From: Solirubrobacterales bacterium
Lineage (GTDB): Bacteria; Actinomycetota; Thermoleophilia; Solirubrobacterales; 70-9
DNA: 64,000 nucleotides
Direction: 5' to 3'
Assembly (NCBI GenBank): GCA_038237625.1
Contig: JBBRYM010000009.1
Coordinates: forward strand, 36,398-100,397
The notes under the pieces were generated by a model. That model ran no database searches, was not told the origin of the DNA, and was given only the letters and a program-made list of their open reading frames with translations. The translations under genes were made by a program, and so were the position numbers. This document shows, in pieces, positions 6,472-41,041 of this stretch (positions are counted from its first letter, which is position 1; each line of letters begins with the position of its first letter).

Positions 6472-8334
6472 ATGCCTATGCAACTAATTTCCCTCGCCAC
6501 CACAACCGCCCCCCCTGCCGGCGGTGCCGCCATCGGCCAGGTAATCATCGCGACGGCCTTCGCCGGCCTCGCGACAACGCTTCTCGTCTGGGTGGTGACG
6601 CTGCACCGCCAGGGCCGTACCGAGCTCCTTCAGCGCGCCTCCGACATGTCCGCCCGGATCGGCGGCATCCCGGGCTGGGCCGCCCTGCCGCTCGGAATCT
6701 CCACCGTCTCCCTCCTCTCCGCCTTCCTCGGCGTCTACTGGGACGTCTCGATCCACATCGACCAGGGCCGCGATCCCGGCCCACTCGCGAACCCAGCCCA
6801 CTACTTCATCCTCGCGGGCCTCTTCGGGATCTTCGCCGCCGGCTACCTATCCATCTCCCTGCCCCGTGACGGCGAGCGCCCCGGCCCCGCCGCGTTTCGG
6901 ATCGCGGGCAACTGGCACGCGCCGGTCGGCGGCCTGCTGCTGTTCGGCTGCGGCACCTTCGCTCTTCTGGGCTTCCCCCTCGACGACGTCTGGCACCGCC
7001 TTTTCGGCCAGGACGTCACCCTCTGGGGGCCCACTCACCTGATCATGATCGGGGGAGCGGTGATGACCCTGATCGGCATGGTCGTACTGATCGCTGAGGG
7101 CATGGCCGCCCGCCGCGCCTGCGGCATCGCCGGGCCTCCCCCGGTTCTCGCACGGGCCCGCCAGGTAGGTCTCGCCGGCGGCCTTTTGATCGGGCTCTCG
7201 GCGTTCCAGGCCGAGTTCGACTTCGGTGTGCCGCAGTTCCGGATGCTCTTCGAGCCCGTGATGCTCGCCTTCGCCTCCGGCATGGCCCTGGTGATGGCGC
7301 GGGTATGGCTCGGCCGCGGCGGAGCTCTGGCCACCGTGCTCTTCTTCGTCGCCGCCCGGGGCCTGATGGCCCTGATCGTGGGCGACCTCTTCGGCCAGTC
7401 CACACCGCACTTCCCGCTTTACGCAGCTGAGGCGCTGTGCGTCGAGGCCGCCGGTATCGCGATCGGTCGCGATCGGCCCCTCGCGCTCGGCGTTGCCTCC
7501 GGCATCCTCGTGGGCACGGTTGGCCTCGCGGCCGAGTGGGCCTGGTCGCAATTCGCGATGCCGGTCCCCTTCACGTCCGACTTACTGCCAGAGGCGCTGA
7601 TCGCCGCTCCAATCGCCGGCGTCGCGGGCGGTGTCGCCGGCGCGCTTTTGGCGTGCGGCCTTCGCGGGACCCTGCCCAGCCCCCGCGTCGCGCGTGCCTC
7701 CTTCGGGACTGCCCTGATCGCAATGGTCGTTCTCACCGTCTATGGCCTGCACCACACGGCCCCCCAGGACATGAGGGCGGTGATCGCGCTGCACCAGACG
7801 GCCAGCGGACCGGATCGCGCGGCGACCGCGACGGTGAAGCTGACGCCTCGCAACGCCGCCGAGGGCGCGGCCTGGCTGAACGAAACGGCATGGCAGGGAG
7901 GGGGCCTCGTCTCGCAGCCGCTCGATCGGGTGCGTGAGGGCGTTTACCGCACGCCGGAAGCGCTGCCGCTTCACGGAGACTGGAAAGCGGTCATCCGGTT
8001 CCAGCGCGGCAACGAGCTCGCCGACCTCCCCGTCTACCTGCCGGCCGATCCCGCCATCCCCGTGGCCGCTGTGCCCGCCCCGCACCACACGTTCACGCGA
8101 TCATTCGTGCCGAGCAAGCAGGTGCTCCAGCGCGAGGTCAAGCAGGACATCCCAAGCTGGCTTTGGGCCCTTGCCGCGTCGCTCGTGATGGCGTTTTGGG
8201 TCGCCTTCATCGTGGCCCTCGCGGCGGGGGCGGCTCGCGCGGGTCGGGCGTTCGAAGGTCGCGCCGAGCACGACTCCGAGCGCGCGTTGCGGACCGTGCC
8301 ACGGGTTCACCTGCGGCGCCCGCGCGAAGCCTGA
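6472..8334 (+). CDS. large polytopic membrane protein of unknown function
   Basis: 620 aa with about 12 hydrophobic segments. These are followed by a roughly 130-aa soluble segment (TVKLTPRNAAEGAAWLNETAWQGGG...GDWKAVIRFQRGNEL) and a final TM. Divergent from the MerR gene. Confidence 0.7.
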   Translation: MPMQLISLATTTAPPAGGAAIGQVIIATAFAGLATTLLVWVVTLHRQGRTELLQRASDMSARIGGIPGWAALPLGISTVSLLSAFLGVYWDVSIHIDQGRDPGPLANPAHYFILAGLFGIFAAGYLSISLPRDGERPGPAAFRIAGNWHAPVGGLLLFGCGTFALLGFPLDDVWHRLFGQDVTLWGPTHLIMIGGAVMTLIGMVVLIAEGMAARRACGIAGPPPVLARARQVGLAGGLLIGLSAFQAEFDFGVPQFRMLFEPVMLAFASGMALVMARVWLGRGGALATVLFFVAARGLMALIVGDLFGQSTPHFPLYAAEALCVEAAGIAIGRDRPLALGVASGILVGTVGLAAEWAWSQFAMPVPFTSDLLPEALIAAPIAGVAGGVAGALLACGLRGTLPSPRVARASFGTALIAMVVLTVYGLHHTAPQDMRAVIALHQTASGPDRAATATVKLTPRNAAEGAAWLNETAWQGGGLVSQPLDRVREGVYRTPEALPLHGDWKAVIRFQRGNELADLPVYLPADPAIPVAAVPAPHHTFTRSFVPSKQVLQREVKQDIPSWLWALAASLVMAFWVAFIVALAAGAARAGRAFEGRAEHDSERALRTVPRVHLRRPREA

Positions 8335-8391: not shown

Positions 8392-11250
8392 ATGGGCGTA
8401 GGGACCCCGGAATCGAAGCTTGGCGGCAGGATCTTCGCGAGCGCGCTCGCGGCGATGATCCTCGCCGGTGGCGCGATTTACGTGTTCGGCGGCCCGGAAT
8501 CCGAGCCCGCCCTCGCCGAGTGCCTTGCCGCGCACGCGAGCGCGCCGGCAGAGCCCGACGCCGCCCCGGCCGACCCTGACGCCGGCGGAAATTGCGCAGT
8601 GCGTGGCGTGGAGAGCTTCGCCGACCTTTCCACGGCCGCCCACAGCCTCGGCCTTCGCATCGGCGCGGACAGTCCCGGCGACTACGCGAACAGCCCGAAG
8701 GTCCGGCTTCGCGCGGCCCAGCCAAGCCACGTGCCGGGGACTGACGGCACATGGAAGCCGGTGGGCAAGGGGCCGCTGGTCGCAAACGATCCCACTTACC
8801 CGAACACCTATGGCGAGGGCTTCGCCGACCTCGCGGGCCGCATCTCCGATTACTCCTACGACGCCAAGCACAAGCGGTTGTACGCGGCGGTGGCGAGCGG
8901 CGGCGTTTGGGTCTCGAAGAACGCGGGGGCGAGCTGGCGCTCGATCGGGAACCGGCTGCCAACGCAGACCGTCGGCTCGGTCGCGTACTCGCCTGCCGAT
9001 CACGGCACTCTGATCGCCGTCACCGGCGACAACGCCTTCGGCGGCAACACCTACGGCGGCCTGGGTGTGTTCCGCACGACGAACAACGGGCGCACGTGGA
9101 AGCGCGCCCGCGGTGTGCCGGCCGGGGCCCTGGGCTTCAAGGCAGCGGTCGACCCCCAGCATCCCAAGGTGATCTACGCCGCGACCGGGGCCGGGCTCTT
9201 CCGGTCGCGTAACGACGGGCGCTCGTTTAAAGACGTCGATCTCCCCATCGGCGGCAGCTGTCAGGGCATGACCTTCCACAAGCCCAACTGCTTCTTCGCG
9301 AACATCGTCACCGACGTGGTCGTCCAGGCGAAGGACCACTTCGGCCACAAGGGCAGTCAGGTCCTTGCCGCGGTGGGGTGGCGAGCCGGGGCGAATCCCA
9401 ACTTCAACGGCCAGCCCGAGTCGCCCGCCAACGGCCTGTACCTCTCCGGCAATGGAAAGCCCGGAAGCTTCAAGCGCCTGAACGTGGACAGCAACGGCTT
9501 CGCGCCTCAGGACGCGGTCGGCCGCGTCGAGTTGGGCGCCGCGACGGGCCCCCAACAGGACCACGGCTACGTCTACGCCCTCGTCCAGGACGCAAAGCTC
9601 TTCAACAGCGGCAAGATCGAAGGGCTGGACGTCCCCGGCGGCGACCCCCTGGGCATCGGCATCGACCCCACCGCGACGCCCACCTACCTGAACGGGGTCT
9701 ACGTCTCCAAGGACTTCGGCCGCACCTGGACGAAGATGGAGGGTCGCCAGCAGTTCCTGCTGCCGACCAGCGGCTCGACATTGGCACAGCTCACCCCCCT
9801 GGGCTTCGGGCCTGGCATCCAGTCCTGGTACGACGAGTGGATCAAGCCGGACCCGACCGTGCAGACCAACAACGGCGTCCCGACGCGGGTTGTCCTCGGC
9901 CTCGAGGAGCTCTACGAAAACCGCCTGCCAGTCGCCCAGAACGGCCCAAGCGACTTCAGGACGATCGGTTCCTACACGGCACTTGGCGGCGGCTGCCTGC
10001 TGGTGATCGCCGCGCCCTTCTGCACCGACATCCAGCAGATCACCCAGGCAACGACAACGCATCCCGACCAGCACTCCGGCACGTTTATCCCGGACGGAAG
10101 CGGCGGCGTGACCCTTCTCGCCGGAAACGACGGCGGCAATTACACCCAGCACGTCTCAAGTGGCGGCGACTTCGCCAACTCGAATTGGGGCAGCGGCAAC
10201 CAGTCGGGCTTTCACACCCTGCTGCCGTACGGTGTCAGCGGCTCGAAGGACGGGGTCATCTACGCCGGCCTCCAGGACAACGGCGAGTTGCGCATCGCGG
10301 CCGACGGCACCCAGAACGAGACCTTCGGCGGCGACGGCGTCTTCACCCAGGTCGATCCGAAGAACTCCAACGTTGTCTTCGAGGAAACGCCGGACGCCGG
10401 CGTGTCGGTCTCGACCGACGGCGGCGTGAACTGGACCGACGTCAACCCCCTGGTCGACAACCCGTCGTTTTACTCGCCGCTCGTCATGGACCCGAAGAAC
10501 GCCAATCATGTCCTCACCGGGGGCAAGCAGATCGTCGAGACGACCGACGGGCCGAACGTGACCTCACCCTCCACGCCGTCCGCCCCCACCGACTGGAAGA
10601 CGGTCATGAACCTCGGTAAGTCGAAGAAGACCGGCGTCACGAACCAGGTCTCGGCGATCGGCGTGCGCGGCCGCAGCGTCTACGCCGGTTACTGCGGCGG
10701 CTGCGACGTGGTGCGCGACAACGTCAAGTTCTCCGCGGGCCTGGCGACCAACGTCGGCGGCAAGAAGCCCCCCAAGCCCGGGACCCGTCAGGGCTGGCAC
10801 AAGGTCAAGGCGAAGGGCCTCCCCCAGCGGTTCATCTCCGACGTGACGATCGACCCGCACCGAGTCAAGACGATCTACGTGACCCTCGGCGCCTCGGACC
10901 TGCGGCCCTACGCGGGCCCCCGCGCCACGGGCAACTCCGGCATCGCCGCCAGCGGCGGCCACATCTACAAGTCGACGAACGGCGGCAAGACCTTCCACGA
11001 CATCTCCGGGAACCTGCGCAAGCTCCCTGCCCTGTGGTCCATCGTGCACGGTCACCAGCTTGTCGTGGCCTCGACGAACGGCGTCTACGCATCGCGCGGG
11101 CGAAACGGGGGCCACTATGCGCTCCTCGGCCGCACGCTCCCCGCGGCGCCGGTCTTCAGCCTCGCCAAGGTTCCCGGTCGCCGGCGCCAGCTCCTGGCGG
11201 CGAGCCTCGGTCGCGGCGTGTACCGGTACACCTTCCCGAAGCACCACTGA
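8392..11250 (+). CDS. BNR/Asp-box repeat beta-propeller protein (sialidase/VPS10-sortilin-like), N-terminally anchored
   Basis: 952 aa with an N-terminal hydrophobic anchor. It has repeated SxDxGxTW-type Asp-boxes: SKNAGASWRS, TTNNGRTWKR, SRNDGRSFKD, SKDFGRTWTK, STDGGVNWTD, STNGGKTFHD. Confidence 0.8.
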   Translation: MGVGTPESKLGGRIFASALAAMILAGGAIYVFGGPESEPALAECLAAHASAPAEPDAAPADPDAGGNCAVRGVESFADLSTAAHSLGLRIGADSPGDYANSPKVRLRAAQPSHVPGTDGTWKPVGKGPLVANDPTYPNTYGEGFADLAGRISDYSYDAKHKRLYAAVASGGVWVSKNAGASWRSIGNRLPTQTVGSVAYSPADHGTLIAVTGDNAFGGNTYGGLGVFRTTNNGRTWKRARGVPAGALGFKAAVDPQHPKVIYAATGAGLFRSRNDGRSFKDVDLPIGGSCQGMTFHKPNCFFANIVTDVVVQAKDHFGHKGSQVLAAVGWRAGANPNFNGQPESPANGLYLSGNGKPGSFKRLNVDSNGFAPQDAVGRVELGAATGPQQDHGYVYALVQDAKLFNSGKIEGLDVPGGDPLGIGIDPTATPTYLNGVYVSKDFGRTWTKMEGRQQFLLPTSGSTLAQLTPLGFGPGIQSWYDEWIKPDPTVQTNNGVPTRVVLGLEELYENRLPVAQNGPSDFRTIGSYTALGGGCLLVIAAPFCTDIQQITQATTTHPDQHSGTFIPDGSGGVTLLAGNDGGNYTQHVSSGGDFANSNWGSGNQSGFHTLLPYGVSGSKDGVIYAGLQDNGELRIAADGTQNETFGGDGVFTQVDPKNSNVVFEETPDAGVSVSTDGGVNWTDVNPLVDNPSFYSPLVMDPKNANHVLTGGKQIVETTDGPNVTSPSTPSAPTDWKTVMNLGKSKKTGVTNQVSAIGVRGRSVYAGYCGGCDVVRDNVKFSAGLATNVGGKKPPKPGTRQGWHKVKAKGLPQRFISDVTIDPHRVKTIYVTLGASDLRPYAGPRATGNSGIAASGGHIYKSTNGGKTFHDISGNLRKLPALWSIVHGHQLVVASTNGVYASRGRNGGHYALLGRTLPAAPVFSLAKVPGRRRQLLAASLGRGVYRYTFPKHH

Positions 11251-11334
11251 AACCCCTCGCGGCACTGTGATCGCTGCTAGCCTTGCGGCGCCTCATGGCG
11301 GAGACAAGACGTCCCGCCCGGACCCTCCCTCCTG

Positions 11335-12384
11335 ATGATCCCGACTGCCCAGCAAGTGGCCGACGCCACCGCGTTCGCGATCGGCTTCGATCGACGCGAC
11401 CGCGCCCGCCTGCACGAGCTGTGGGACGGCGTCCTCGACTCCGGGCAATGGGCGGAGGGCAGCCTCACCGCAGAGCTCGAGGCTGCCTGGACCGCTCACG
11501 ACGACATGGCCGCGGTCGCCACCTCAGGCTGGTCGGGCGGCGCGCTCGCGGCGCTCGAGCTGTGCGGCGTGCGGGGCGAGAAGGTCCTCTGCCCGTCGAA
11601 CACCTTCATGGCGACGCCGCTGGCGATCGTCCGCGCGGGTGGCACGCCCGTATTCGTCGACTGCAACCGTGAGGATCTCTGCATGTCGTTCGGGGACTTC
11701 GAGCGCAAGGCGGAGCGCGAGCGGCCACGAGCGGCGTTCCTCGTCCACATCGGTGGCCACATCGCCTTCGACGTCGAGCGGATCGCGGCCTACTGCGACG
11801 CCAACGACATCTTCCTGATCGAGGACTGCGCCCACGCCCACGGGGCGTCCTGGAACGGCCGTCGCCCGGGGTCGTGGGGGAAGGCGGGCATCTACTCCCT
11901 TTACGCGACGAAAACAATCTCCACCGGCGAGGGCGGCATCCTGGTCTCGCGCGATGACGACGTCGTCGAGTTCGCCCGAGACTTTCGCAACTATGGCAAG
12001 CCCACGCATGAGGTCGAGGGGCTGGGGCTGCGGATGAGTGAGTTCACCGCCGCGCTGGGGCTGGTGCAGATCGAGCGACTCGACGAGATCGTCGCCTGGA
12101 AGAACGATGTCGCGTCCCGCTTCCTCGATCCCGTGTTCAGTGGTCGCCTCGGACTCCCGGACGGAATGACCTCGGGCCTCTACAAGTACGTCGTCTTCGA
12201 GGAGATCGCACGCTCGACCGGCCTCGTCTATGCCGACCCCTGCCACCGGATCATGGGCGATCTGGCGGACCTTCCCAACACCGACTGGGTTGCCCAGAAC
12301 CACCGCTGCGTTCCCCTCTATTACCACGGCCCGGAGATGCCCGAAACCGGCGAGCCGTGGGCGGCCCTGAAGGACTCCGCGTGA
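11335..12384 (+). CDS. DegT/DnrJ/EryC1/StrS family PLP-dependent sugar aminotransferase
   Basis: 349 aa. IEDCAHAHGA ... YSLYATKTISTGEGGILVS (PLP lysine context) is typical of the family. Confidence 0.85.
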   Translation: MIPTAQQVADATAFAIGFDRRDRARLHELWDGVLDSGQWAEGSLTAELEAAWTAHDDMAAVATSGWSGGALAALELCGVRGEKVLCPSNTFMATPLAIVRAGGTPVFVDCNREDLCMSFGDFERKAERERPRAAFLVHIGGHIAFDVERIAAYCDANDIFLIEDCAHAHGASWNGRRPGSWGKAGIYSLYATKTISTGEGGILVSRDDDVVEFARDFRNYGKPTHEVEGLGLRMSEFTAALGLVQIERLDEIVAWKNDVASRFLDPVFSGRLGLPDGMTSGLYKYVVFEEIARSTGLVYADPCHRIMGDLADLPNTDWVAQNHRCVPLYYHGPEMPETGEPWAALKDSA

Positions 12385-15029
12385 GGGTCATGGTCACCGG
12401 CGGGTCGGGCTTCATCGGCTCGCACGTCGTCGACAAGCTCCTCGACGCGGGTCACCAGGTTCGCCTCTACGACCTCGCCCCCTCTCCCTATCGCTCGCCC
12501 GAGGAAGTCGACTTCCGAAGCGGCGACATCACCGACCTCGACGCGCTCACGGCTGCCTCACAGGGCTGCCACGCAATCATCCACCTGGCCGCCGTGGCCG
12601 ACGTCAACGACGTGGTCGCCGACCCCGCGAAGGCCCAGGAGGTCAACTCGGAGGGCACGCTCAAGGTCCTCGAGGCGGCGCGCCGGGCAGAGGTCCAGCG
12701 GGTCGTTTACGGATCGACAATCTGGGCCTATTCCGACTGCCCGGAGCGCGACGTCGACGAGGACACCCGCGCCGAGGCCCCCAGCCACCTCTACACCGCC
12801 ACGAAGCTCGCGGGCGAGCACTACTGCAAGTCCTACTCGGAGCTCTACGGCGTCGAGTACACGATTCTGCGCTTCGGCATCCCCTACGGCCCACGCGCGC
12901 GCGACGCGACGGTCCTCGCCGCTTTCTGCGCAAAGGCCGAGAACGGCGAGCGCCTAACCGTCGCGGGGGACGGCAGCCAGTCACGGCGGTTCGTCTACGT
13001 CGAGGACCTGGCGGAGGGCGTCGTCGCCGGCCTGCGGCGGGAAGCGGCCAACCGGCTCTACAACCTCACCGGCGCCGAGGACACGACCATCCTGCAGATC
13101 GCCGAGGCGGTGCGCGACCACGTCGCCGACTCCGGCATCGTCCACACGCCGGGGCGAACCGGCGACTTCGGCAGCAAGGAGGTCTCCTCGGAGCGAGCGC
13201 AGCGAGAGCTCGGGTGGAGCGCCCGGACCCGCTTTGCCGAGGGTTTTCGCTCATACCTCGCCTGGCGCCGCGCGCGCCCCGAGCGTCGCAAGGTCCTGAT
13301 CCTCACCGCCGACATCGGCGAGGGCCACGACCTGCCCGCCCGGGCGCTGGCGCGCGACCTCGCCCTCGAGCATCCGGGCAGCGAGGTCGAGGTCGTCGAC
13401 GGCCTGAGGGCGATGGGCCGAATCGTCACCGCAACGGTTCGCGATGGCTCCTGGTTCTCGTTCAACTGGCTGCCGATCCTCTTCGCCCTCCAGTACGCGC
13501 TGCTTACGCGCTTTCTCCCGGCTCGCTGGCTCGTGCTGCGCCTGGGGTACTTGCTCGGAGCCCGCGGGCTGCTCAGGGCCATCCGCAGCCAGGACCCCGA
13601 CGTGATCATTTCCACGTATCCGGGGACGACTGCGGTGCTCGGTGAGATGCGGCTGCGCCGCCGCCTCGACGTTCCCGTGGTTTCTGCCATCACCGACCTC
13701 GCGGGACTTCGCTTCTGGGCGCACCCCGGAGTCGACCTGCACACGATCACTCACCGCGAGTCGATCGAGGAGGTCGAGACGATTGCAGGACCGGGAAGCG
13801 CGCGCTGGGCGCGGCCCCCGACGGGGCCGGAGTTTTTCGAGCCGCGCGAGCGCGACGACGCCCGCCGCGCCCTCGACCTTCCGCTCGACCGCCCGGCGAT
13901 CATCGTCTCAGGGGGCGGCTGGGGTATCGGCGATTTGGTCGGCGCCGTCGAAACCGCGCTCGAGGTCCCGGACTCAATCGTCCTTTGCCTGAGCGGCCAC
14001 AACCAGCATGCTTGGCGCCGGCTTCGCGAGCGCTTCGGCGCCGATCCTCGGGTTCAGCTGTTGGGCTTCACCGACAGGATGAGCGACCTCCTCGCGGCCG
14101 CCGACGCCCTGGTTCACTCAACGGCCGGCCTGACCGTGCTAGAGGCACAGATCCGGGGCTGCCCGACGATCTCGTACGGCTTCGCTGTCGGGCACATCCG
14201 CGTCAACAACCACGCCTTCGAGCGCTTCGGCCTCGCCCGGGTGGCCCGCTCGAAGCCCGAGCTGGCTGCCTGTTTGCGCGAGGCGCTCTCAGAGCGCGCG
14301 GAGCCCGACGAATCATTCGCCAAGCTGCCCTCGCCGGCCACGCTCGCCATCGAGGCTCGCCCCCGCGTGCGGCCGTTTCCGACTGCGCGCCTGCGCGCTG
14401 CGCGGATTGCCACAGCCGGCGCAGCCGCCTCGGTGATCGCCGGCGCGGCGCTGTTCACGGATCTCGGCTACCCGCTCATGGCTCGCGCGCTCGGCGTCGG
14501 AACCATGCGCTCGGCGCCCGTGGAGGGCCACGACGTCGGGGTGCTCATCGACGCGCCGACCAGCTCGGCCGGCCGGCTCGCTCGCGATCTTGCGCGCCAC
14601 GGCATCACGGCCTCCTTCGCGCTCGACAGCGCTCCCTCAAACAGGAAGCTTGGCACGCTGTTCGCAGCCGGGGACGAGGCCCTGCCCAGAATCGACAGCG
14701 GGGGTCCATTTCATTCGTTCGGCACGGGGGGCCGGCTCGCCGCCGCGGCGAGCTCGCTCGGCTTGCAACGACCCTTCTACTACGAGCCGCCGGAAGACGG
14801 CAGGACCGGCCTGCAGGCGCTGCTGGCGAAGTCCGCCGGCGGTCACCCCGTGGCCGGAGCCGTATTCGTAACCGGACCGGGAGATGGCGCGTCCATCCGT
14901 CCGGGTGACTTCGTGGAGCTGGACCTGACCGTCGGCTCGAAGCCCCGCCGCGCAATCGCCGCTCTCAAGTCCGACCTCCGGACGTCACGCCTGCACGGTG
15001 TGCCGCTGACGCAGCTGGTCGCCCCGTAA
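12381..15029 (+). CDS. three-domain fusion: NAD-dependent sugar epimerase/dehydratase (SDR) + MGDG-synthase/GT28 glycosyltransferase + TM-anchored NodB-like domain
   Basis: N-terminal domain: VTGGSGFIGSH and YTATKLAGEHY (extended SDR). Middle domain: KVLILTADIGEGHDLPARALA ... IVSGGGWGIGD ... STAGLTVLEAQIRGCP (UgtP/MGDG synthase type). This is followed by a TM segment (IATAGAAASVIAGAALF) and a roughly 200-aa tail (VGVLIDAPT ... GITASFAL) resembling a degenerate polysaccharide deacetylase. The GTG at 12381 overlaps the DegT stop; an ATG at 12390 is an alternative start. Confidence 0.8.
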   Translation: MRVMVTGGSGFIGSHVVDKLLDAGHQVRLYDLAPSPYRSPEEVDFRSGDITDLDALTAASQGCHAIIHLAAVADVNDVVADPAKAQEVNSEGTLKVLEAARRAEVQRVVYGSTIWAYSDCPERDVDEDTRAEAPSHLYTATKLAGEHYCKSYSELYGVEYTILRFGIPYGPRARDATVLAAFCAKAENGERLTVAGDGSQSRRFVYVEDLAEGVVAGLRREAANRLYNLTGAEDTTILQIAEAVRDHVADSGIVHTPGRTGDFGSKEVSSERAQRELGWSARTRFAEGFRSYLAWRRARPERRKVLILTADIGEGHDLPARALARDLALEHPGSEVEVVDGLRAMGRIVTATVRDGSWFSFNWLPILFALQYALLTRFLPARWLVLRLGYLLGARGLLRAIRSQDPDVIISTYPGTTAVLGEMRLRRRLDVPVVSAITDLAGLRFWAHPGVDLHTITHRESIEEVETIAGPGSARWARPPTGPEFFEPRERDDARRALDLPLDRPAIIVSGGGWGIGDLVGAVETALEVPDSIVLCLSGHNQHAWRRLRERFGADPRVQLLGFTDRMSDLLAAADALVHSTAGLTVLEAQIRGCPTISYGFAVGHIRVNNHAFERFGLARVARSKPELAACLREALSERAEPDESFAKLPSPATLAIEARPRVRPFPTARLRAARIATAGAAASVIAGAALFTDLGYPLMARALGVGTMRSAPVEGHDVGVLIDAPTSSAGRLARDLARHGITASFALDSAPSNRKLGTLFAAGDEALPRIDSGGPFHSFGTGGRLAAAASSLGLQRPFYYEPPEDGRTGLQALLAKSAGGHPVAGAVFVTGPGDGASIRPGDFVELDLTVGSKPRRAIAALKSDLRTSRLHGVPLTQLVAP

Positions 15030-15043
15030 GGAGCCGGATAGAG

Positions 15044-15964
15044 CTAGGGAGCTTCGGCCGCCGCGACCAGCCCCCCCACCGCGGGGGTCGAGCCGATCAG
15101 GCCCGCTCCCACCGCCACGGTGACGAGAAAGGCAACGAGGGCCGCGCCGCCAAGGGGTGTGTGGTCCCAGCTCTCGCCGCCCAAGAACGGCGCGAGGGCG
15201 ACTGGGACGCTGACCTGGACCACGAAGACGACCGGAGCCACGTGGGTCGCCGGCCTGCTCTGCAGGGCGCTCATCTCGCTGAGGAGGCCGACCATGGCGA
15301 TCAGCCCGGTGACGAACGCCCACCCGAGCGCCGCCGCCGGCTCACCTCGGGAGAGGTAGTCGGTGATGAGCTTCGAGGACACGCCGGTCCATGCGAACGC
15401 GCACCCGGCGCTCAGGGGGACGAGCACGCTCGCGCGCACGCGCCCGCGCCCGCGCAAAACGTAAGGCAGAAGCGCGAGGGCAGCGAGCCCGCCAAGCGTC
15501 AGTACCAGTCGGGAGAAATTGGCATGGCTGGTCACGCGCTCCGGCGCTGCCCAGGCCATGCCCGCGACCCCCGCGACGATCGCCAGGACGGCAAAGACCT
15601 CGCGGCGGCCCACCCGCTCGCCCAGGATGCGGTGGCCGAGCACAAGGAGCAGCAGCAGGCCGCTCGCCAGGGCGGGCTGGACCACGGTGAGCGGCGCCAC
15701 GAGCAGGGCAGCGAGGTGGAACGGCCACCCGGAACCCGACAGGAGCGTCCCCGCCAGCCAGCGGCGGCTTCGAACGAGGCCGCCGAACAACGAGGGTCGC
15801 AGCGCATGGCTCGGAGGGGCGGTGCGGGCATCCAGCGCCTGGATAGCGATCCCGACCGCGAACAGTGACGAGGCCGTGCAGGCAAGGAGGATCCCAAGGG
15901 CGAGCACGCGCGGGATGATAGGAACGTGCGTGCGACCCCACTTCTCGCCCTGGCCGGCCTCCAT
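15044..15964 (-). CDS. multi-pass membrane protein, DMT/EamA-like
   Basis: About 9-10 hydrophobic helices with a two-halves architecture. The family call is tentative. The longest ORF overlaps the divergent deacetylase start by 39 nt. An internal GTG at 15907 would remove the overlap. Confidence 0.6.
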   Translation of the reverse strand: MEAGQGEKWGRTHVPIIPRVLALGILLACTASSLFAVGIAIQALDARTAPPSHALRPSLFGGLVRSRRWLAGTLLSGSGWPFHLAALLVAPLTVVQPALASGLLLLLVLGHRILGERVGRREVFAVLAIVAGVAGMAWAAPERVTSHANFSRLVLTLGGLAALALLPYVLRGRGRVRASVLVPLSAGCAFAWTGVSSKLITDYLSRGEPAAALGWAFVTGLIAMVGLLSEMSALQSRPATHVAPVVFVVQVSVPVALAPFLGGESWDHTPLGGAALVAFLVTVAVGAGLIGSTPAVGGLVAAAEAP

Positions 15965-16606
15965 TCCCTGCCGGCCGCAGCGCCGGTCTTAGCGCCTGTC
16001 GCCCGGGGACTGAAAATCCCGCTCCGGATCAAAACACCCGGTGTCGCGATCACCTTCGACGACGGGCCCCACCCGCAGGGGACTGCGGCCGCCCTCGAGG
16101 CACTCGCGCGCGAGGGGGTGCCCGCAACCTTCTTCCTCGCCGGGGAGCAGGTTGAGCGCTTCCCGGCCCTGGCCCGCGAGATTCTCGACGCCGGCCACGA
16201 GACCGCACTCCATTGCCACCGCCACCGCAACCAATTGCGCCTGACCCCGGCCGCAGCCGCAGAGGACCTTCGCCGCGGCGCCGCGGCAATCGTGGATGCC
16301 ACCGGGCGGCCGCCGCGCCTTCACCGTCCCCCCTACGGGATCTACTCAGCCTCGGGGCTGGCCCACGCCCGGCGGCGTTACGCGCTGCTCCTGTGGTCGC
16401 GCTGGGGACACGACTGGCGAGCGAGCGCGACCGCGGAGTCGATCGCGGCCGAGGCGGGCGGAAGGCTGACGTCCCGCGACGTGGTGCTGCTCCACGACGC
16501 CGACCACTATTCCGATCGGGGCTCGTGGAAGGCGACCGTGGCCGCGCTGCCCCGAATCATCGAGTCGGTGCGCGAGCAGGGTCTCGAGGCAGTGGCGGTT
16601 CCCTAG
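15926..16606 (+). CDS. polysaccharide deacetylase (NodB homology domain)
   Basis: VAITFDDGPHPQGT ... VPATFFLAGEQV ... GHETALHCHRH ... VVLLHD are the classical NodB motifs. No in-frame ATG/GTG/TTG lies between 15926 and the catalytic motif. Confidence 0.8.
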   Translation: MRATPLLALAGLHSLPAAAPVLAPVARGLKIPLRIKTPGVAITFDDGPHPQGTAAALEALAREGVPATFFLAGEQVERFPALAREILDAGHETALHCHRHRNQLRLTPAAAAEDLRRGAAAIVDATGRPPRLHRPPYGIYSASGLAHARRRYALLLWSRWGHDWRASATAESIAAEAGGRLTSRDVVLLHDADHYSDRGSWKATVAALPRIIESVREQGLEAVAVP

Positions 16607-16686
16607 CCGCCCGCAGGAAACGCTGCGTGACGCTGTCCGAGACCCGTACGCTTCAACCAGCAACGCGGAGTCAAGGACGAGGAGGG

Positions 16687-17928
16687 ATGCCCAGTATGCG
16701 GACGAAGCGCCGGCGAGGTAGCGGGCCAGGCCTGATCCTCGCGATCGGTCTGGCGACGGCACTCGCCGCAGCCGCGCCCGCGGGCGCGGCGGTACGGGGG
16801 AATGACCCCCCGCGGGTGGTGACTTGGAGCGCGCCCGCCGTGTCTAAGAGCCGCTTCGTCGATCCCTCCAGCGCGCCCGCCGGCTACTACAACGAGCCTC
16901 CCGGGGTCGATCCTCGGCCGAACGCCCTGAAGGCCGACGTCTACCTGCCGGCGGGGTACCGCACCCACCGAAACCGCCGCTACCCGCTGCTGTTCCTGCT
17001 GCACGGCCACGGCGACGCCTACGACTCCTGGCCCAACCCGTCCAACGGCGACCTGTTGCGCACGGCGAGCGGCTTTCCCGGCGTGATCGTCATGCCTGAG
17101 GGCGACCACGGCTGGTTCACGAACTGGTGGAACGGCGGTGCACGCGGCGATCCGAGCTGGGAGCGTTACCACCTCGATCAGCTCCTGCCCTACGCGATGG
17201 ACCGCCTGCGGATAAAGCGCGGCCGCCGCTGGCACTCCATAGCCGGGCTCTCGATGGGCGGCGAGGGAGCGATGTACTACGCGACCCAGCGACCGGGGTT
17301 CTTCGGCTCGGCCGCGTCGTTCTCAGGTTCGCTTTCGCTGCTTCGGCCCGAGTGGCCCGCCGGCTTCAACACGCAGGGCGAAGACTTCGCCACCGTGTTC
17401 GGAGACCCGGGAGGCTTCTACGCGGTGGGCCACGACCCCACGAGCCTGATCGACAACCTGCGCTCGACCAGGATCTTCGTCTCCGTCGGCGACGGCGTGC
17501 CCAATCCAGCCAGCCTCGACGAGATCAAGAACACGTTCGGCAAGCTCGCGGAGGCGGAGCTTCGACAGCACGCGGGCGACTTCGTCCGCGCGGCACGAGG
17601 CGCGGGCGAGGACGTCACCTACACCCCGCACCAGGGAATCCACGCCTGGCCGTACTGGCGCGCGGACCTGGCCAATGCCATCGACTGGGGTCTCTTCCGC
17701 AAGCCGCCCGCGGTCCATCACCGCTGGAAGTACTCCACCGTTGCGACCGTTGGGAAGATGTGGAACATCGGGTTTCGGTTCACGAAGCCGCCGACCGCCC
17801 TCGAGACCTTCACGCGGAATGGTCCGAAGCTGAGCGGGGAGGGGACCGGCAAGGTGACGCTGCAGCTGCCGGGGGGCTGCCGGGTGACGCCCCGGCTACC
17901 GTTCACGGACCTCGTCGTGCCCTGCTAG
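16687..17928 (+). CDS. secreted alpha/beta hydrolase, esterase-D/antigen-85-like family
   Basis: The ATG at 16687 is preceded by the SD-like AGGACGAGGAGGG. Signal peptide: MPSMRTKRRRGSGPGLILAIGLATALAAAAPAGA. Also has YPLLFLLHGHGD and the nucleophile elbow GLSMGG. The upstream part of the track ORF is Arg/Pro junk. Confidence 0.75.
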   Translation: MPSMRTKRRRGSGPGLILAIGLATALAAAAPAGAAVRGNDPPRVVTWSAPAVSKSRFVDPSSAPAGYYNEPPGVDPRPNALKADVYLPAGYRTHRNRRYPLLFLLHGHGDAYDSWPNPSNGDLLRTASGFPGVIVMPEGDHGWFTNWWNGGARGDPSWERYHLDQLLPYAMDRLRIKRGRRWHSIAGLSMGGEGAMYYATQRPGFFGSAASFSGSLSLLRPEWPAGFNTQGEDFATVFGDPGGFYAVGHDPTSLIDNLRSTRIFVSVGDGVPNPASLDEIKNTFGKLAEAELRQHAGDFVRAARGAGEDVTYTPHQGIHAWPYWRADLANAIDWGLFRKPPAVHHRWKYSTVATVGKMWNIGFRFTKPPTALETFTRNGPKLSGEGTGKVTLQLPGGCRVTPRLPFTDLVVPC

Positions 17929-17978: not shown

Positions 17979-18737
17979 TCAGTTCAGGCGCTCCACCTGG
18001 GAGCCGCCGACGATGGCGTCTTCTCCGCCTTCGAACCTGACCCAGGCCTTGTGCCCCCCGTCGTAGTCGGGAGCCCAGAGCACCAGCTGCGCTTGCGCGC
18101 CGTCCTCGCCACCCACGCGGCAGCGTCCCTCCGCCTCCGGGTCGAGCCCGCGCCAGATGCGGACAAAGGGGTTGGACTCCCACTCATGCGCGATCGTGCT
18201 CGGCTCCCGGTGTCCGGGATGCACCGCCGTCTCGCCGGGCAGGCTCATGAGCTTGTCCATGATCGAGGCACGCAGGTCGGCGAACCCGGTCGCGCCTGGA
18301 GCGCGGGTCCCGCCCACGGTTCCCTTGAAGAGCACGTCCGCCGTAAAGACGTCCGAGTCGCCGACCCGCAGGGCGAGGTGATCGGCGCAGTGCCCGGGGG
18401 TCTCGAGTGCGGTGATCCGAGTCTGCCCGGACTCCACCGTGTCGCCCTCGGCGAGGGTGCCGTCCAGGGGATCCATGATCAGGTCAGCCACCAGCGGATG
18501 CGCGAGAACTGGTGGGCTGCCGACCGCCTCGCGCAACTCGGCGAGCCCCACAACGTGGTCGTAGTGATGGTGCGTCAGCAGCACATGGGTGATGGTGATG
18601 TCTTCCGCGCGAACCCGTTCGATCAGCGGTCCCGTGACGTCGTTGGAATCGATGAGGACGCCGGCGCCGCCAGGCGCGTCGTATGCCAGGTAGGCGTTGG
18701 AGAGGAACTGCGGGTGCTCGGCGCGCTCGACGATCAC
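17979..18737 (-). CDS. MBL-fold metallo-hydrolase (glyoxalase II/YcbL-like)
   Basis: THHHYDH metal motif, TPGH, FKGTVGG, PGH. The GTG at 18737 overlaps the stop of the upstream small gene (GTGA). The longer track ORF is a 5' extension. Confidence 0.8.
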   Translation of the reverse strand: MIVERAEHPQFLSNAYLAYDAPGGAGVLIDSNDVTGPLIERVRAEDITITHVLLTHHHYDHVVGLAELREAVGSPPVLAHPLVADLIMDPLDGTLAEGDTVESGQTRITALETPGHCADHLALRVGDSDVFTADVLFKGTVGGTRAPGATGFADLRASIMDKLMSLPGETAVHPGHREPSTIAHEWESNPFVRIWRGLDPEAEGRCRVGGEDGAQAQLVLWAPDYDGGHKAWVRFEGGEDAIVGGSQVERLN

Positions 18738-19057
18738 GCTTCGGACCTTCGCAGATAGGCCGCGTTGGCCGTCCGTGCGCGCCACAGAAGGAGCGCATAG
18801 GCGATCACCAGGCCGATGACCCAGTCCACCTGGGAGTAGACCGTGAAGAAGATGATCGCGGCGACGACCGCCGCCAGAGCGAAGGTCGCCATGGCGCGGG
18901 TCCAAGACCATGTTCCAGGCGCCTCCTGGCTGAGGGCGGACCAGGCGCCACGATCGATCATCGCCCAGAGGCTGGACCCTGGAGCGAGCTCCTCGAGCTC
19001 TGCGCGCCGCGCCGGTCCCCGGTTCTCGAAGAGAGCCACGGAGGGCAAGTTATCCAT
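18734..19057 (-). CDS. small membrane protein, unknown function
   Basis: 107 aa from the ATG at 19057. It has two adjacent hydrophobic helices (ATFALAAVVAAIIFFTVY, VIGLVIAYALLLW) and is translationally coupled to the MBL gene. Confidence 0.5.
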   Translation of the reverse strand: MDNLPSVALFENRGPARRAELEELAPGSSLWAMIDRGAWSALSQEAPGTWSWTRAMATFALAAVVAAIIFFTVYSQVDWVIGLVIAYALLLWRARTANAAYLRRSEA

Positions 19058-36245: not shown

Positions 36246-37232
36246 TCAAGCAGCCCGGAGGGCGCTTGCGAATCGCTCGCGGTATTCCGCCGGGCCGATT
36301 CCCAGGCGGCGGTGAAAGGCACGGCGCATGGTCTCGGGCGTGCCGAACCCCAGGCGTCTGGCAACCGCCTCGACCGGCGCTGAGCCGTCGGCGAGGGCCT
36401 GACGGGCGGCCTCCACTCGTGCCAGCTCCACGTAGGCGGCGGGGGTCTGCCCCACCTCGCGACGGAACGCGCGCGCGAAGTTGCGCGGGCTCATGTACGC
36501 CCGCTCTGCCAGGATTTCCACCCGGAGGTCGTCGCCGAGGTGCCCGGCGATCCAGCCCTGCACCTCGCGCAGCGGGACGCGCTCGGCGCGCTGCGCCGAG
36601 AGCTGGGCGCTGAACTGCGACTGCCCCCCGGGCCGCTGGACGAAGAGCACCAGCCAGCGCGCGATCTCGAGGGCGACCTCGCGGCCCAGGTCCTCCTCGA
36701 CGAGAGCGAGGGCAAGGTCCATTCCCGCGGTGACCCCGGCCGACGTCCAGACGTCGCCGTCGCGGACGAAGATCGCGTCGGCGTCGACCTCCACCTCCGG
36801 GTAGCGCTCCGCGAGCTTTTCGCAGGAGGCCCAGTGGGTCGTCGCCCGCTTGCCGTCGAGGAGCCCTGCCCTGGCGAGCAGGAAGGAGCCCGTGCACACG
36901 GACGTAACACGACGGCAGCGCTTGGCCGTTGAGCGCAGCCAGGCGATGAACGCGGAATCGCCGGCGATCTTGAGGGTGCCCGCGCCGCCGGCGACGACGA
37001 GCGTGTCGATGCGGCCGCGCACGTCGCCGAAGGAGCGGTCGGGTGTGATCGTCAGGCCGCTGGAGGTCCGTAGGGGCTCACGGCTCGATCCGGCGATCTC
37101 AACCGAGTAAGCGTTCTCCACCAAGCGGCCCGCGCCATTGAAGACCTCGAGCGGTCCGACGGCGTCCAGGGCCTGGACTTCGGGGAAGACGACGATGACG
37201 ATGCGGCGGGCCGAGGGCATGCTGCGCATCAT
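36246..37232 (-). CDS. GlxA family (DJ-1 domain + AraC HTH) transcriptional regulator
   Basis: RRIVIVVFPEVQALDAVGPLEVF ... SVCTGSFLLARAGLL ... a C-terminal AraC HTH (SPRNFARAFRREVGQTPAAYV). The start is 37232, 37229 or 37220, all ATG. Confidence 0.85.
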   Translation of the reverse strand: MMRSMPSARRIVIVVFPEVQALDAVGPLEVFNGAGRLVENAYSVEIAGSSREPLRTSSGLTITPDRSFGDVRGRIDTLVVAGGAGTLKIAGDSAFIAWLRSTAKRCRRVTSVCTGSFLLARAGLLDGKRATTHWASCEKLAERYPEVEVDADAIFVRDGDVWTSAGVTAGMDLALALVEEDLGREVALEIARWLVLFVQRPGGQSQFSAQLSAQRAERVPLREVQGWIAGHLGDDLRVEILAERAYMSPRNFARAFRREVGQTPAAYVELARVEAARQALADGSAPVEAVARRLGFGTPETMRRAFHRRLGIGPAEYRERFASALRAA

Positions 37233-37293
37233 GCCGCGCCTGCACTCTGTCTGCAATGACAAACACCGGACGATTCCTGCCACCCCTGTCCCG

Positions 37294-37339
37294 CGAACGT
37301 CCCTCGTGCCCGCCTACCCGCCGGGATGCGGGACGTTCG
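37294..37339. repeat. inverted-repeat element copy B (GAACGTCCC/GGGACGTTC family)
   Basis: CGAACGTCCC, a 26-nt loop, then GGGACGTTCG. It lies 8 nt downstream of the stop of the 37348-38556 gene and upstream of glxA. Confidence 0.7.
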
Positions 37340-37347
37340 GCGAAGCG

Positions 37348-38556
37348 TCAGGCGGCGGCGAGCTCGCGCGGCTCGAGGATCGCCGTGCGCAGAAAGCGCT
37401 CGATGCCCTCCACCACGTGAGCGGTGCGAAGAGAGGGCGCCAGGTCGAAGGCATGCTCGGCTCCGGGAAGCTCGACGTAGAGGACCTCGCTGCGCGAGAC
37501 GGAGCGCAGGCGCTCGACGAAGGCGCGGGCGTCCTGGACCGGCACGAGCGTGTCGCGGTCACCGTGGAAGACGAGGAAAGGCGGAGCGTTTTCGTGAACG
37601 CGGTAAGTCGGCGAGACCGCCTCGTAGGCCCCGGGGTCGGCGTCGTAGTCGCGCTTGATGACGACTTTCGGGAACAGCCAGCTGCGGAGCTCGGGGTAGT
37701 AGTTGCCGCCGAGGTCGGCCATGTCGTAGACGCCGTAGAAGGGGACGGCTGCGGCCACCGACGTGTCGGCCGCTTCGAAGCCGGGCTGCAGCGAGCGATC
37801 GTCGGCGGTCAGCGCGGCGAGGGCTGTCAGGTGCCCGCCCGCCGAGCCGCCGGTGAGGCAGATGCGCTCCGGGTCGATGCCGAGCTCGCGCGCGTGCTCG
37901 CGAACCCAGGCGATCGCCCGCTTGACGTCGATGACGTGGTCGGGGAGCGTTGCGCGGGGGCTCAGCCGGTAGTCGATGTTGAAGCCGACCCAGCCGTTGG
38001 AGGCCAGGTGCTTGAGCAGGGGAATGCCCTGCTCGAGGCGGCTGCCCGCGATCCAGCCGCCGCCGTGGATCTGGATCACCGCCGGGCGGGGGTCGTCGCC
38101 CAGTTTTGCCTCGGCCGGCCGGTAGATGTCGAGGCGGAGGCGATAGCCGTCGGCTTGGTGATAGATGACGCCGCGTTCCTTGCACACGGATTTTGCGAAC
38201 AGCATGAGCGGCGGGAAGGCCAGGTGACTGCGCGGGAAGCGCAGGCGGGACGGCTCGCCGGGAATGTTCTTCAGGGCTTCATCCACTGCGCGGGAGCTGG
38301 CGATGCTGAGGTAGGCGAGGCGGGACTCGAAGATCAACAACAGGGCTATGAGGGCAAGTAGGAGCAGGCCCAGCGTCGAGCTGGCTGCAGCGAGCAGGAT
38401 GAGAGCCAGGGCTATGAGGGCGAGCAGGGCGGTGAACTGCCAGGCGAACTCGCGGGCCATTGCGGCGACGATCCATCGCAGGACCCGGAGGTGCAGCGCT
38501 CGGGGCGGGTGGAGGGCCCAGAGGCGCTTGACGAGCTTGAACTGGGCGCGGATCAC
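37348..38556 (-). CDS. membrane-anchored alpha/beta hydrolase (esterase/lipase)
   Basis: N-terminal TM helices (FTALLALIALALILLAAA, LLLLALIALLLIF), then IHGGGW and GGSAGGHL. Confidence 0.8.
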   Translation of the reverse strand: MIRAQFKLVKRLWALHPPRALHLRVLRWIVAAMAREFAWQFTALLALIALALILLAAASSTLGLLLLALIALLLIFESRLAYLSIASSRAVDEALKNIPGEPSRLRFPRSHLAFPPLMLFAKSVCKERGVIYHQADGYRLRLDIYRPAEAKLGDDPRPAVIQIHGGGWIAGSRLEQGIPLLKHLASNGWVGFNIDYRLSPRATLPDHVIDVKRAIAWVREHARELGIDPERICLTGGSAGGHLTALAALTADDRSLQPGFEAADTSVAAAVPFYGVYDMADLGGNYYPELRSWLFPKVVIKRDYDADPGAYEAVSPTYRVHENAPPFLVFHGDRDTLVPVQDARAFVERLRSVSRSEVLYVELPGAEHAFDLAPSLRTAHVVEGIERFLRTAILEPRELAAA

Positions 38557-38620
38557 TTCGCATCCTCGACCGAGCTACTAGTCGTCATCGGTATGCGACG
38601 ACAACTCGTAGTTCGGGGGC

Positions 38621-39763: not shown

Positions 39764-39767
39764 GGCC

Positions 39768-40976
39768 CTAGACCTCAGCCGGCCTGTAGACCGTCACAAC
39801 CGCTGCGCCGCCCAAGCCGATGTTGTGCTGCAGGGCGACCTTGGCGCCGTCAACTTGGCGCCGCTCGGCGGTGCCGCGAATCTGCCAGGTGAGCTCCGAG
39901 CACTGAGCGAGCCCGGTGGCGCCGAGCGGGTGGCCCTTCGAGATCAGCCCGCCCGAAGGGTTGACGACCGGGCCTGAGCCTCCGTATGTCGTCGCCTCGC
40001 TGTCGACGAGCTCATGGCCGTGGCCCTCTTCGGCGAAGCCCAACGCCTCGTAAGTGATGAGCTCGTTCGCCGAGAAGCAGTCGTGGAGCTCGCAGACGTC
40101 GACGTCATCCGCGGAGACGCCGGCCTCCTCGTAGGCCTTGTTCGCGGCCTCCTTGGACATGTCGTAGCCGACGATCTTGATGCAGTCGGTCTCGTCGTCG
40201 AAGGTCGAGCGCATGTCGGTGACCATCGCCTGGCCCGCGATCTCGACGGCCTGCTCCCAGAGACCGTGCTCGTCGACGAAGCGCGCGGAGGCCACGATTG
40301 CGCAGGCCGATCCGTCGGAGGTCGGCGAGCACTGGAGCTTCGTGAGTGGCTCGTGGATCATCTTCGACGCCTTGATGTCGTCGATCGAGTACTCGTCCTG
40401 GAACTGGGCGTAGGGGTTGTTGACCGAGTGCTTGTGGTTCTTCCAGCCGATCCAGGCGAAATGGTCGGGAGTCGACCCGTACTTCTCCATGTGGTCGCGC
40501 CCGGCGTTGCCGAACATCTGCGGGGCGGCTGGTGACTGCTCCGGGGCGCGCAGCTCGAACATCCGCATGGCGTGCTTGTCCAAGGGGTTCGTGCGGTCCG
40601 TGTACTTCACGCCGAGCGAGCCCATTTCCATCTTCTCGAAGCCGAGTGCGAGCGCGCAGTCGGCGAGTCCGCCCTTCACGGCCTGGCGCGCCATGTAGAG
40701 CGCGGAGCTGCCGGTGGAACAGTTGTTGTTGACGTTCACCACCGGGATCCCCGTGAGCCCCAACTGGTAGAGCGCGCGCTGGCCTGAGGTGGACTCGCCG
40801 TAGCAGTAGCCCGCGAAGGCCTGCTCGACCTCGTGGTAGGCGACGCCGGCGTCATCGATCGCCTTCGATCCTGCCTCCTTCGCCCAGTCGGGGTAGTCGC
40901 CCTCCTTGGTGCCGGGCTTGTCGAACTTGGTCATACCGACCCCGATCACGAAGGTTCGGTTGCCGCTTGTACTCAT
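39768..40976 (-). CDS. thiolase-like lipid-transfer protein (SCP-x/Ltp-type thiolase)
   Basis: VIGVGMTKF ... [11 protein letters not shown] ... ELHDCFS ... [17 protein letters not shown]. Confidence 0.85.
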
Positions 40977-41041
40977 CTTTTCGGAAGCTCCTTTGTCGTC
41001 AGCAACGTCCGTGCGCCAAGCGCGAACGAGCGCGAGAGTAT

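Follow-up and report, generated by a model that had tools for sequence, protein, structure and literature searches.

Which product is served by a gene cluster that encodes a lipid-directed glycosyltransferase, an N-deacetylase and a polytopic membrane protein together, and a sugar aminotransferase beside them? The question is raised by a 64-kb stretch of a Solirubrobacterales genome (contig JBBRYM010000009.1, positions 36,398 to 100,397), hereafter the window, in which neighbouring genes encode a DegT-family aminotransferase, a fusion of an extended short-chain dehydrogenase/reductase (SDR) with a GT28 glycosyltransferase (GT), a transmembrane (TM) helix and a C-terminal tail, a membrane protein on the opposite strand, and a NodB-type deacetylase. 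According to our analysis, which is based on sequence comparison, these genes are predicted to constitute a Thermoleophilia module that makes a cationic amino-sugar glycerolipid for the cytoplasmic membrane, a reading to which we assign a probability of about 0.55. An initial annotation of the window had proposed a cationic amino-glycolipid built on diacylglycerol (DAG), and this product stands as the best reading. Few soil actinobacteria are as abundant, and yet as little cultured, as the Thermoleophilia (Solirubrobacterales and relatives), and to our knowledge their membrane chemistry is almost unknown; in the literature we found nothing specific on a glycolipid pathway that combines DegT with a monogalactosyldiacylglycerol (MGDG) synthase, or on aminoglycolipids of Thermoleophilia. 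If the reading is true, a class-wide module would account for part of the Thermoleophilia envelope and could explain unidentified amino lipids of isolates.

Conservation was assessed in a sample of one genome per GTDB species, which yielded 80 loci, all from metagenome-assembled genomes of Solirubrobacterales/Thermoleophilia, and neighbours were counted by tblastn of the window proteins against these loci. The G+C content of the window is ~70%, and the listing of open reading frames (ORFs) together with scans by hidden Markov models (HMMs) bears out every gene of the module (Table 1). The DegT gene lies directly 5' of the fusion in 79 of the 80 loci, by which chance adjacency of the two is ruled out. 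The NodB gene adjoins the module in 65 loci, and a contig end truncates 5 of the remaining 15, while the CE4-like tail of the fusion was detected in 60 and the membrane protein adjoins in 22, in two gene orders and co-directionally in 17. The commonest order is NodB-DegT-fusion (44 loci); a second one, membrane protein-DegT-tail-less fusion-NodB, occurs in 16 loci, with all genes co-directional and their stop and start codons overlapping, and the order of the window, DegT-fusion-membrane protein(-)-NodB(+), in 3. The surrounding genes vary by lineage (RecD2 helicase, adh_short, aldo-keto reductase, ETF-QO and others). For the fusion, over 100 homologues covering the full length were identified, at 53-81% identity, and the named sources are all Solirubrobacterales. 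The adjacency of DegT, fusion and NodB, for which the initial annotation had suggested a neighbourhood check, thus recurs in most of the 80 related genomes, and the view that the genes form one conserved functional module is supported.

Table 1. Positions of the module genes, of the domains of the fusion protein and of the adjacent esterase in the window
Feature	Position	Strand	Basis or remark
DegT/DnrJ/EryC1 aminotransferase dependent on pyridoxal 5'-phosphate (PLP), 349 aa	11335-12384	+	PF01041, E 2e-58, 198.7 bits
SDR-GT28-TM-tail fusion, 882 aa from GTG	12381-15029 (open frame 12357-15029)	+	HMMs, homologue N-termini
Extended-SDR domain of the fusion	12381-13250	+	PF01370, E 3e-54
GT-B, GT28 domain of MGDG-synthase/UgtP type	13284-14291	+	PF06925, 42.0 bits, cut-off 25
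Single TM helix, about aa 673-692	14406-14465	+	read from the sequence RPRVRPFPTARLRAARIATAGAAASVIAGAALFTDL
Predicted extracytoplasmic C-terminal domain of CE4/NodB fold, in the 190-aa tail	14532-15029	+	AlphaFold2 (AF2) model and Foldseek
9-helix membrane protein, 287 aa	15044-15907 (open frame to 15964)	-	likely start 15907
CE4/NodB metallo-deacetylase	15926-16606	+	PF01522, E 1e-28, 99.9 bits
Secreted esterase	16687-17928	+	PF00756, signal peptide MPSMRTKRRRGSGPGLILAIGLATALAAAAPAGA

Starting at the GTG codon, the fusion begins with MRVMVTGG, in agreement with the N-termini of its homologues, and this GTG is overlapped by the TGA of the DegT gene as GTGA (4 nt). The public gene call starts at ATG 12390 instead and gives 879 aa; the SDR residue numbers used here are counted from that ATG. 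The 882-aa reading with its 4-nt overlap, as initially annotated, is plausible. The SDR and GT28 assignments of the fusion, and that of the stand-alone NodB, passed the HMM checks.

The GT domain matches the NCBIfam model of diglucosyl-DAG synthase (PRK13609) with an E value of 1e-25 over 334 positions, and in a phmmer comparison with PDB sequences it found UgtP (9wde, 1.6e-15) and MGD1 (4wyi, 1.1e-12) far ahead of MurG (7d1i, 0.016). Its DIGEGH motif, with H313, is invariant, and unfused GT homologues score 45-72 bits against PF06925. By its sequence, the domain is therefore shown to belong with the diacylglycerol glycosyltransferases UgtP/MGD1 and not with MurG, as the initial annotation had supposed. 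The acceptor is named from this family assignment, and a quite improbable alternative has to be weighed here, according to which no free membrane glycolipid is formed: the GT would act on phosphatidylglycerol (PG), phosphatidylinositol, polyprenyl phosphate or a small molecule, or its product would be an anchor or primer of a wall polymer or of a polymer like lipoteichoic acid (LTA), bound by the tail of the fusion. UgtP glycolipids anchor LTA in Firmicutes, LtaS-like and LPG_synthase_TM genes occur near the module in one locus (L085), and the CE4 fold of the ectodomain suggests glycan binding. Furthermore, GpgS of Pseudomonas aeruginosa modifies PG (PMC12713373), and an unidentified aminophospholipid has been described among the polar lipids of Solirubrobacter (PMC10722151). 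However, the characterised enzymes of the PF06925/UgtP/MGD1 type use DAG or glycosyl-DAG, and no polymerase, LtaS-like or GT-C gene was found as a conserved neighbour across the 80 loci.

In the SDR domain, the Rossmann motif GGSGFIGSH, T110, and Y135 and K139 (in YTATK) are invariant in the homologue alignment, and the acidic residue after beta-2 is of the NAD+ type. The nearest solved relatives are PelX (6WJB, 6e-40), then GalE enzymes and then UXS. PelX (6WJB/6WJ9) is a group 3 UDP-GlcNAc C4-epimerase that prefers N-acetylated UDP-hexoses, and its catalytic residues S121 and Y146 align with T110 and Y135. The catalytic segment S-T110-I-W (STIW) is invariant or nearly so in 14 homologues. 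Its Ile and Trp occupy the place of the Asp-Glu pair of the 4,6-dehydratases (RmlB/LegB type) and align by HMMER to the Ser and Glu of human UXS, so that the Ser-Glu pair of the ArnA/UXS decarboxylases is absent too. The domain scores 131 bits against the model of dTDP-glucose dehydratase (cut-off 365), 106 against LegB (cut-off 475) and far under the cut-off against UDP-4-keto-pentose synthase, and no ArnA model is among its best matches. Trp112 is bulky and invariant, and K263, at least 90% conserved, lies at the gatekeeper position of GalE and aligns with the catalytic Arg of human UXS.

Such relatives suit an explanation that we hold to be rather unlikely, in which the SDR is a UDP-GlcNAc/UDP-Glc 4-epimerase feeding the GT with UDP-GalNAc/UDP-Gal, NodB converts GalNAc-DAG to GalN-DAG, and DegT acts elsewhere. 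In addition to the kinship with PelX and the GalE enzymes, the non-acidic residues after the catalytic Thr are epimerase-like, one locus (L066) carries an SDR-GT fusion without DegT, and the JGI annotation of the protein is UDP-glucose 4-epimerase. On the other hand, Trp112 and the gatekeeper Lys263 are atypical of GalE-type epimerases, the DegT gene is coupled to the fusion and keeps its 5' position in all but one of the loci, and in a cluster of another lineage (L087) DegT is fused to this very SDR subfamily with no other oxidoreductase nearby.

The aminotransferase assigned by the initial annotation is borne out by the PF01041 match and by the Schiff-base PLP lysine K193, within YSLYATKTISTGEGG; D164 lies within EDCAHAHG. 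Dehydratases of the DegT family have a His in place of that lysine. Among the NCBIfam models, PseC, LegC, DesI and ArnB match best, all far under their cut-offs, and the ArnB model (NF008658; 96.5 bits, cut-off 631) scores lower than the other three. The closest PDB relatives include C3, C4 and inosose aminotransferases alike, and the scores place the protein in a divergent subfamily without a clear characterised orthologue.

These results bear directly on the Arn pathway of Proteobacteria, to which the cluster had initially been compared. The Arn-like order of enzyme types holds, whereas homology and chemistry do not, as judged from the ArnB score, the SDR residues and the missing genes. True Arn chemistry would require that the SDR decarboxylates a UDP-uronic acid to a UDP-4-keto-pentose, that DegT turns this into a 4-amino-pentose of the Ara4N type, that the GT28 domain transfers it onto DAG and that NodB acts like ArnD. 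The enzyme families do parallel ArnA-C, ArnB, ArnD and ArnE/F, Lys263 aligns with the catalytic Arg of UXS, and a DegT-SDR protein of another lineage (L081) is encoded beside two UDP-sugar dehydrogenases, a formyltransferase, a GT2 and a deacetylase. Nevertheless, we deem this chemistry highly improbable for the module. The SDR lacks the Ser-Glu pair of ArnA/UXS, and the scores against ArnB and UDP-4-keto-pentose synthase are far under the cut-offs. No acyl- or formyltransferase and no UDP-sugar dehydrogenase were found in the whole 64-kb window, nor were formyl- or acetyltransferases or UDP-sugar dehydrogenases found in the conserved neighbourhoods, and the cluster and these neighbourhoods hold no ArnC-type GT2 or ArnT-type GT-C either. 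With no enzyme to add an N-acyl group, NodB would therefore have none to strip. Finally, the L087 cluster has neither dehydrogenase nor formyltransferase, yet keeps its deacetylase.

The canonical NodB of the initial annotation has all five CE4 motifs (TFDDG, HCHRH, RPPYG, WGHDW and LLHD), which are invariant in 26 orthologues. It has no evident signal peptide, and its orthologues in the commonest gene order have short, non-hydrophobic N-termini (MIRHLLAPVVP...TFDDG). Because these N-termini are devoid of a hydrophobic signal, deacetylation is probably cytoplasmic, as has likewise been argued for GpgD (PMC12713373).

The tail of the fusion had been described as a TM-anchored, NodB-like domain. 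This holds for the fold but not for the function: neither Pfam nor NCBIfam gave a match to the tail, and the catalytic motifs are absent. Its AF2 model (pLDDT 89.3, pTM 0.87) was compared with the PDB by Foldseek, and all 34 matches at E<=1e-3 are CE4/NodB deacetylases, the best being Bc1960 (E 1.6e-8, TMq 0.75), with the CE4 pseudoenzyme BA3943 also among them. When the profiles of the tails and of the neighbouring NodB family are compared, they align in register, though weakly (E 0.057), and it was the structure prediction that settled the fold. There is no conserved His among 35 aligned homologous tails, which have (L/V)VDA in place of TFDD, with one Asp kept, and are missing H-x-x-x-H and L-H-D. 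The loss of these catalytic residues suggests a pseudoenzyme, and the tail, as modelled, probably retains the CE4 fold only and is catalytically inactive as a metallo-deacetylase. The hydrophobic segment that precedes it is kept in the homologue alignment and is itself preceded by an Arg-rich stretch. We infer that the tail faces outward (N-in/C-out), since NAD+ and UDP-sugars, on which the SDR and GT domains depend, are cytoplasmic and since the arginines ahead of the helix agree with the positive-inside rule.

The minus-strand gene was initially annotated as a DMT-like multi-pass membrane protein. It is real, polytopic and conserved (2207 homologues), but its DMT assignment is weak and a flippase role tentative. 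It scores 25.1 bits against Pfam NIPA (cut-off 26.2) and 26.7 against NCBIfam DMT_1 (cut-off 50), with EamA matching weakly (E<0.01) in 3 of 18 homologues. A profile search of the family against PDB sequences gave no match. The AF2 model (pLDDT 88) shows nine long helices, for which Foldseek returned nothing at E<=1e-3, the best DMT match being LicB (probability 0.77, TMq 0.38). No internal repeat was found by hhalign; by direct reading, both halves end in a helix of the type LGE...G...G, which is reminiscent of EamA. From its gene context and by analogy, the protein is a candidate lipid translocator. The gene and that of NodB diverge, with ~18 bp between their likely starts (15907-15926), and this spacing implies that the promoters lie within each other's coding regions or that the transcripts lack a leader. 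Positions 11000-17000 of the window yielded no sigma-70-like site.

Taken together, the components suggest the following pathway to a cationic amino-glycolipid. In the cytoplasm, the NAD+-dependent SDR would oxidise a hydroxyl group of a UDP-N-acetylhexosamine (HexNAc)-type sugar, most likely at C4, and the translationally coupled DegT would transaminate the resulting keto group. The SDR is regarded as the source of the keto sugar because a DegT enzyme requires a keto substrate and because members of this SDR subfamily occur coupled with, or fused to, DegT; the sugar is regarded as HexNAc-derived because a deacetylase accompanies these enzymes in two unrelated contexts (CE4 and PIG-L) and because the nearest SDR relative prefers N-acetylated sugars. 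At the inner leaflet, the GT28 domain would then move the sugar onto DAG or glycosyl-DAG, both donor and acceptor being presumed, and on the cytoplasmic side the CE4/NodB enzyme, whose catalytic motifs are in place, would strip the N-acetyl group of this presumed substrate and free the amine. The 9-helix protein would move the lipid outward, where binding of this lipid or of a wall glycan would probably fall to the dead CE4-fold tail. The outcome would be a glycolipid with a positive charge and possibly two amino groups, and the scheme as a whole is a functional analogue of the HexSDF and GpgSDF systems discussed below.

Several observations weigh against this pathway. The closest characterised relatives of the SDR are epimerases, which release no keto intermediate for DegT, and family membership is all that points to the acceptor lipid. 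NodB is not adjacent in 10 untruncated loci, among which is the closest relative of the window (L001), and the membrane protein, whose family signal is weak, adjoins the module only in the 22 loci mentioned above. In L066 (7887-10322), the sole such case in the 80 loci, the SDR-GT fusion stands by itself: within 8 kb upstream and ~3.7 kb downstream, where the contig ends, no remnant of DegT, NodB or the membrane protein was found at E<=10. Lastly, the reported polar lipids of Solirubrobacter include no aminoglycolipid, and their unidentified aminophospholipid is the one chemotaxonomic hint (PMC10722151).

A bolder and improbable version of the pathway ends in a diamino-dideoxy-hexosyl diacylglycerol, with the 2-amine freed by the CE4 enzyme and a second amine at C4 or C3. 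The sugar would perhaps be modified while already lipid-linked, at the membrane surface, and in related lineages the SDR itself is membrane-anchored; the dead CE4 ectodomain, facing outward, would receive or chaperone the flipped lipid or a wall glycan. If true, this would be a class of doubly cationic glycerolipids not described in bacteria, and such a tail would couple the state of the outer leaflet to the cytoplasmic synthase.

Among characterised systems, HexSDF of Clostridioides difficile is the closest to the module. There, the annotations are MGDG synthase for HexS, polysaccharide deacetylase for HexD and MprF-like flippase for HexF. An aminohexosyl glycolipid (aminohexosyl-hexosyl-diradylglycerol) requires both HexS and HexD, while HexF is not essential for its production; the N-acetyl intermediate builds up without HexD, and resistance to daptomycin and bacitracin is due in part to the system (PMC10128005). 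By family annotation, both systems join a GT of the MGDG-synthase family, a CE4-type deacetylase and a proposed flippase in one cluster. However, HexF is MprF-like, whereas the 9-helix protein of the module has a weak DMT-like signal; HexSDF includes neither an SDR nor a DegT; no SDR, TM helix or CE4-like ectodomain is attached to HexS; and HexSDF is controlled by the HexRK two-component system, of which no counterpart was seen at the module. The GpgSDF system of P. aeruginosa makes glucosaminyl-phosphatidylglycerol (GlcN-PG) (PMC12713373) and follows the same synthase-deacetylase-flippase logic, in that a GlcNAc-lipid is formed and afterwards loses its N-acetyl group, probably at the cytoplasmic face. 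It differs in using a GT4, a COG3233 deacetylase and a UPF0104 flippase, in its acceptor PG, and in the lack of SDR and DegT.

The likeness to Arn concerns the predicted sequence of operations, namely oxidation by an SDR, transamination by a DegT enzyme, transfer to a lipid, de-N-acylation at the inner leaflet by a NodB-family enzyme and translocation by a flippase, which belongs to the DMT superfamily in Arn and is a candidate in the module, with a cationic surface lipid as the outcome. In contrast, no component of the module scores as an Arn orthologue, and its SDR is without the decarboxylase residues; the GT is a GT2 in Arn and a GT28 in the module; the carrier in Arn is undecaprenyl phosphate, while that of the module is presumably DAG and itself part of the end product; and the module has no formyltransferase or adjacent ArnT-type GT-C. 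UgtP/YpfP of Firmicutes and plant MGD1 are the closest solved relatives of the GT, with which they have the N-terminal MGDG_synth domain and a GxGH motif in common. They are free-standing proteins, soluble or peripheral, with UDP-Glc or UDP-Gal as donor, whereas the GT of the module is placed between an SDR and a TM helix with ectodomain and is linked to amino-sugar enzymes. [quoted passage not shown] However, GnnA is a Gfo/Idh/MocA oxidoreductase and not an SDR, the deacetylase is LpxC and not a CE4 enzyme, and the product is lipid A and not a glycerolipid.

The module is set apart from HexSDF, GpgSDF and Arn by its SDR-DegT branch, the SDR-GT fusion, the membrane-spanning synthase with a CE4 pseudoenzyme ectodomain and the different candidate translocator. 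By analogy, it is best read as a HexSDF-like amino-glycolipid module with an added keto-amination, which would follow an Arn-like logic with no homology to Arn. If this is true, the recently recognised synthase-deacetylase-flippase principle reaches a new phylum and gains a keto-amination branch. A synthase with SDR and GT domains inside and a CE4 pseudoenzyme outside is unusual, and from it one may learn in what way the making of glycolipids is tied to the cell surface.

The wider family was collected by an exhaustive HMMER search of 1.84 billion representatives, followed by Pfam scans and sequence inspection. Dozens of proteins of 580-660 aa have no SDR and consist of GT28, TM helix and CE4-like tail; SDRs also occur on their own, sharing 54-56% identity with that of the fusion, and in two proteins (P0348 and P0367) an SDR of this type is joined to a multi-TM segment and a CE4 domain that is degenerate. 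In a distant locus (L084, 7962-14087), the five functions of the module are encoded by separate genes, some on opposite strands: the SDR has four or five C-terminal TM helices in place of the GT, a tail-less GT28 of 401 aa is encoded on the other strand, and NodB, membrane protein and a PlsC-type acyltransferase adjoin. The DegT frame of this locus is broken by an apparent frameshift, and its C-terminus is garbage.

In a separate lineage of lower GC content, DegT and SDR form single polypeptides (P0333 and P0393-P0396, mutual identity 60-74%), which come from several independent assemblies and share the STIW and DFxGK motifs. One of these proteins (P0395) was found on five contigs from NCBI and Logan, and the fusion of this lineage can be trusted as genuine. 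Its genes are always located beside a PIG-L-type deacetylase and a GT2 or GT4, with a cytidylyltransferase (CMP-sugar type) and an ABC transporter also present. The cluster L081 (4356-13664) adds two UDP-sugar dehydrogenases, a sugar N-formyltransferase and NeuB, and L087 (467-9100) has the DegT-SDR protein and a deacetylase with no UDP-sugar dehydrogenase, formyltransferase or other oxidoreductase nearby. Clusters of this surface-glycan type could help to identify the amino sugar made by DegT and SDR.

Fusions were kept only if they were present in several independent or diverged sequences. The membrane protein-GT-tail (P0305) and PAP2-GT28 (P0340) proteins are single instances and are regarded as unverified; the latter would be the one hint, apart from family membership, at transfer from a UDP-sugar to DAG. 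The DegT-SDR, DegT-SDR-GT and GT-NodB fusions of the ENA ERZ25039xxx contigs were discarded, as the housekeeping genes there are fragmented and the DegT end in L084 is frameshifted. In L083, L085, L086 and L088-L090, which belong to this set, many genes are in pieces, e.g., the RecD2 helicase as three or four ORFs; such assemblies therefore produce spurious fusions and splits, and architecture statistics that use them overcount "Rosetta-stone" fusions. Two LPG_synthase_TM (MprF-flippase-like) genes and a 785-aa gene of the sulfatase family (LtaS-like) are located within a few kb of the module in the distant locus L085 (538-1500, 3378-5735 and 14291-15418), which hints that the module may be connected with HexF/GpgF-type flippases or with an LTA-like polymer.

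As to the surroundings of the module in the window, the genes just upstream of DegT encode a 620-aa protein without Pfam match (6472-8334, +) and a 952-aa BNR/sortilin-Vps10-like repeat protein (8392-11250, +), both common only to the closest relative L001, at 70-71% identity. The rest of the window is occupied by ordinary metabolism. Positions 36246-51015 encode an acyl-CoA dehydrogenase, a thiolase, two AMP-binding ligases, a MaoC hydratase, a P450, an enoyl-CoA hydratase and a 982-aa hydrolase/AMP-binding fusion, and a fatty-acid desaturase is located at 53647-54765, all of them unlinked to the module. The sole GT-C gene of the window, of the PMT_2 family that includes ArnT-like enzymes (569 aa, 57045-58754, -), is 40 kb off, with no evident linkage.

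The secreted esterase that the initial annotation had counted with the cluster is confirmed as such by PF00756 and a signal peptide, but it lies outside the module and is not a conserved neighbour. Its mechanically called ORF reaches up to 16213 and overlaps NodB in another frame, and the true start is at about 16687. The esterase, a metallo-beta-lactamase (MBL)-fold protein, an ArsP permease and the BNR/sortilin protein were rejected as members of the module, since they are not conserved neighbours. A gene for an MBL-fold protein is nonetheless present within a few kb of the module in the window (17979-18911, -), in the close relative L002 (17972-18634, -, 62% identity) and in the distant L084 (14078-14989, -), where it comes after the PlsC-type acyltransferase; this may be a coincidence, or the gene may encode a loosely associated hydrolase.

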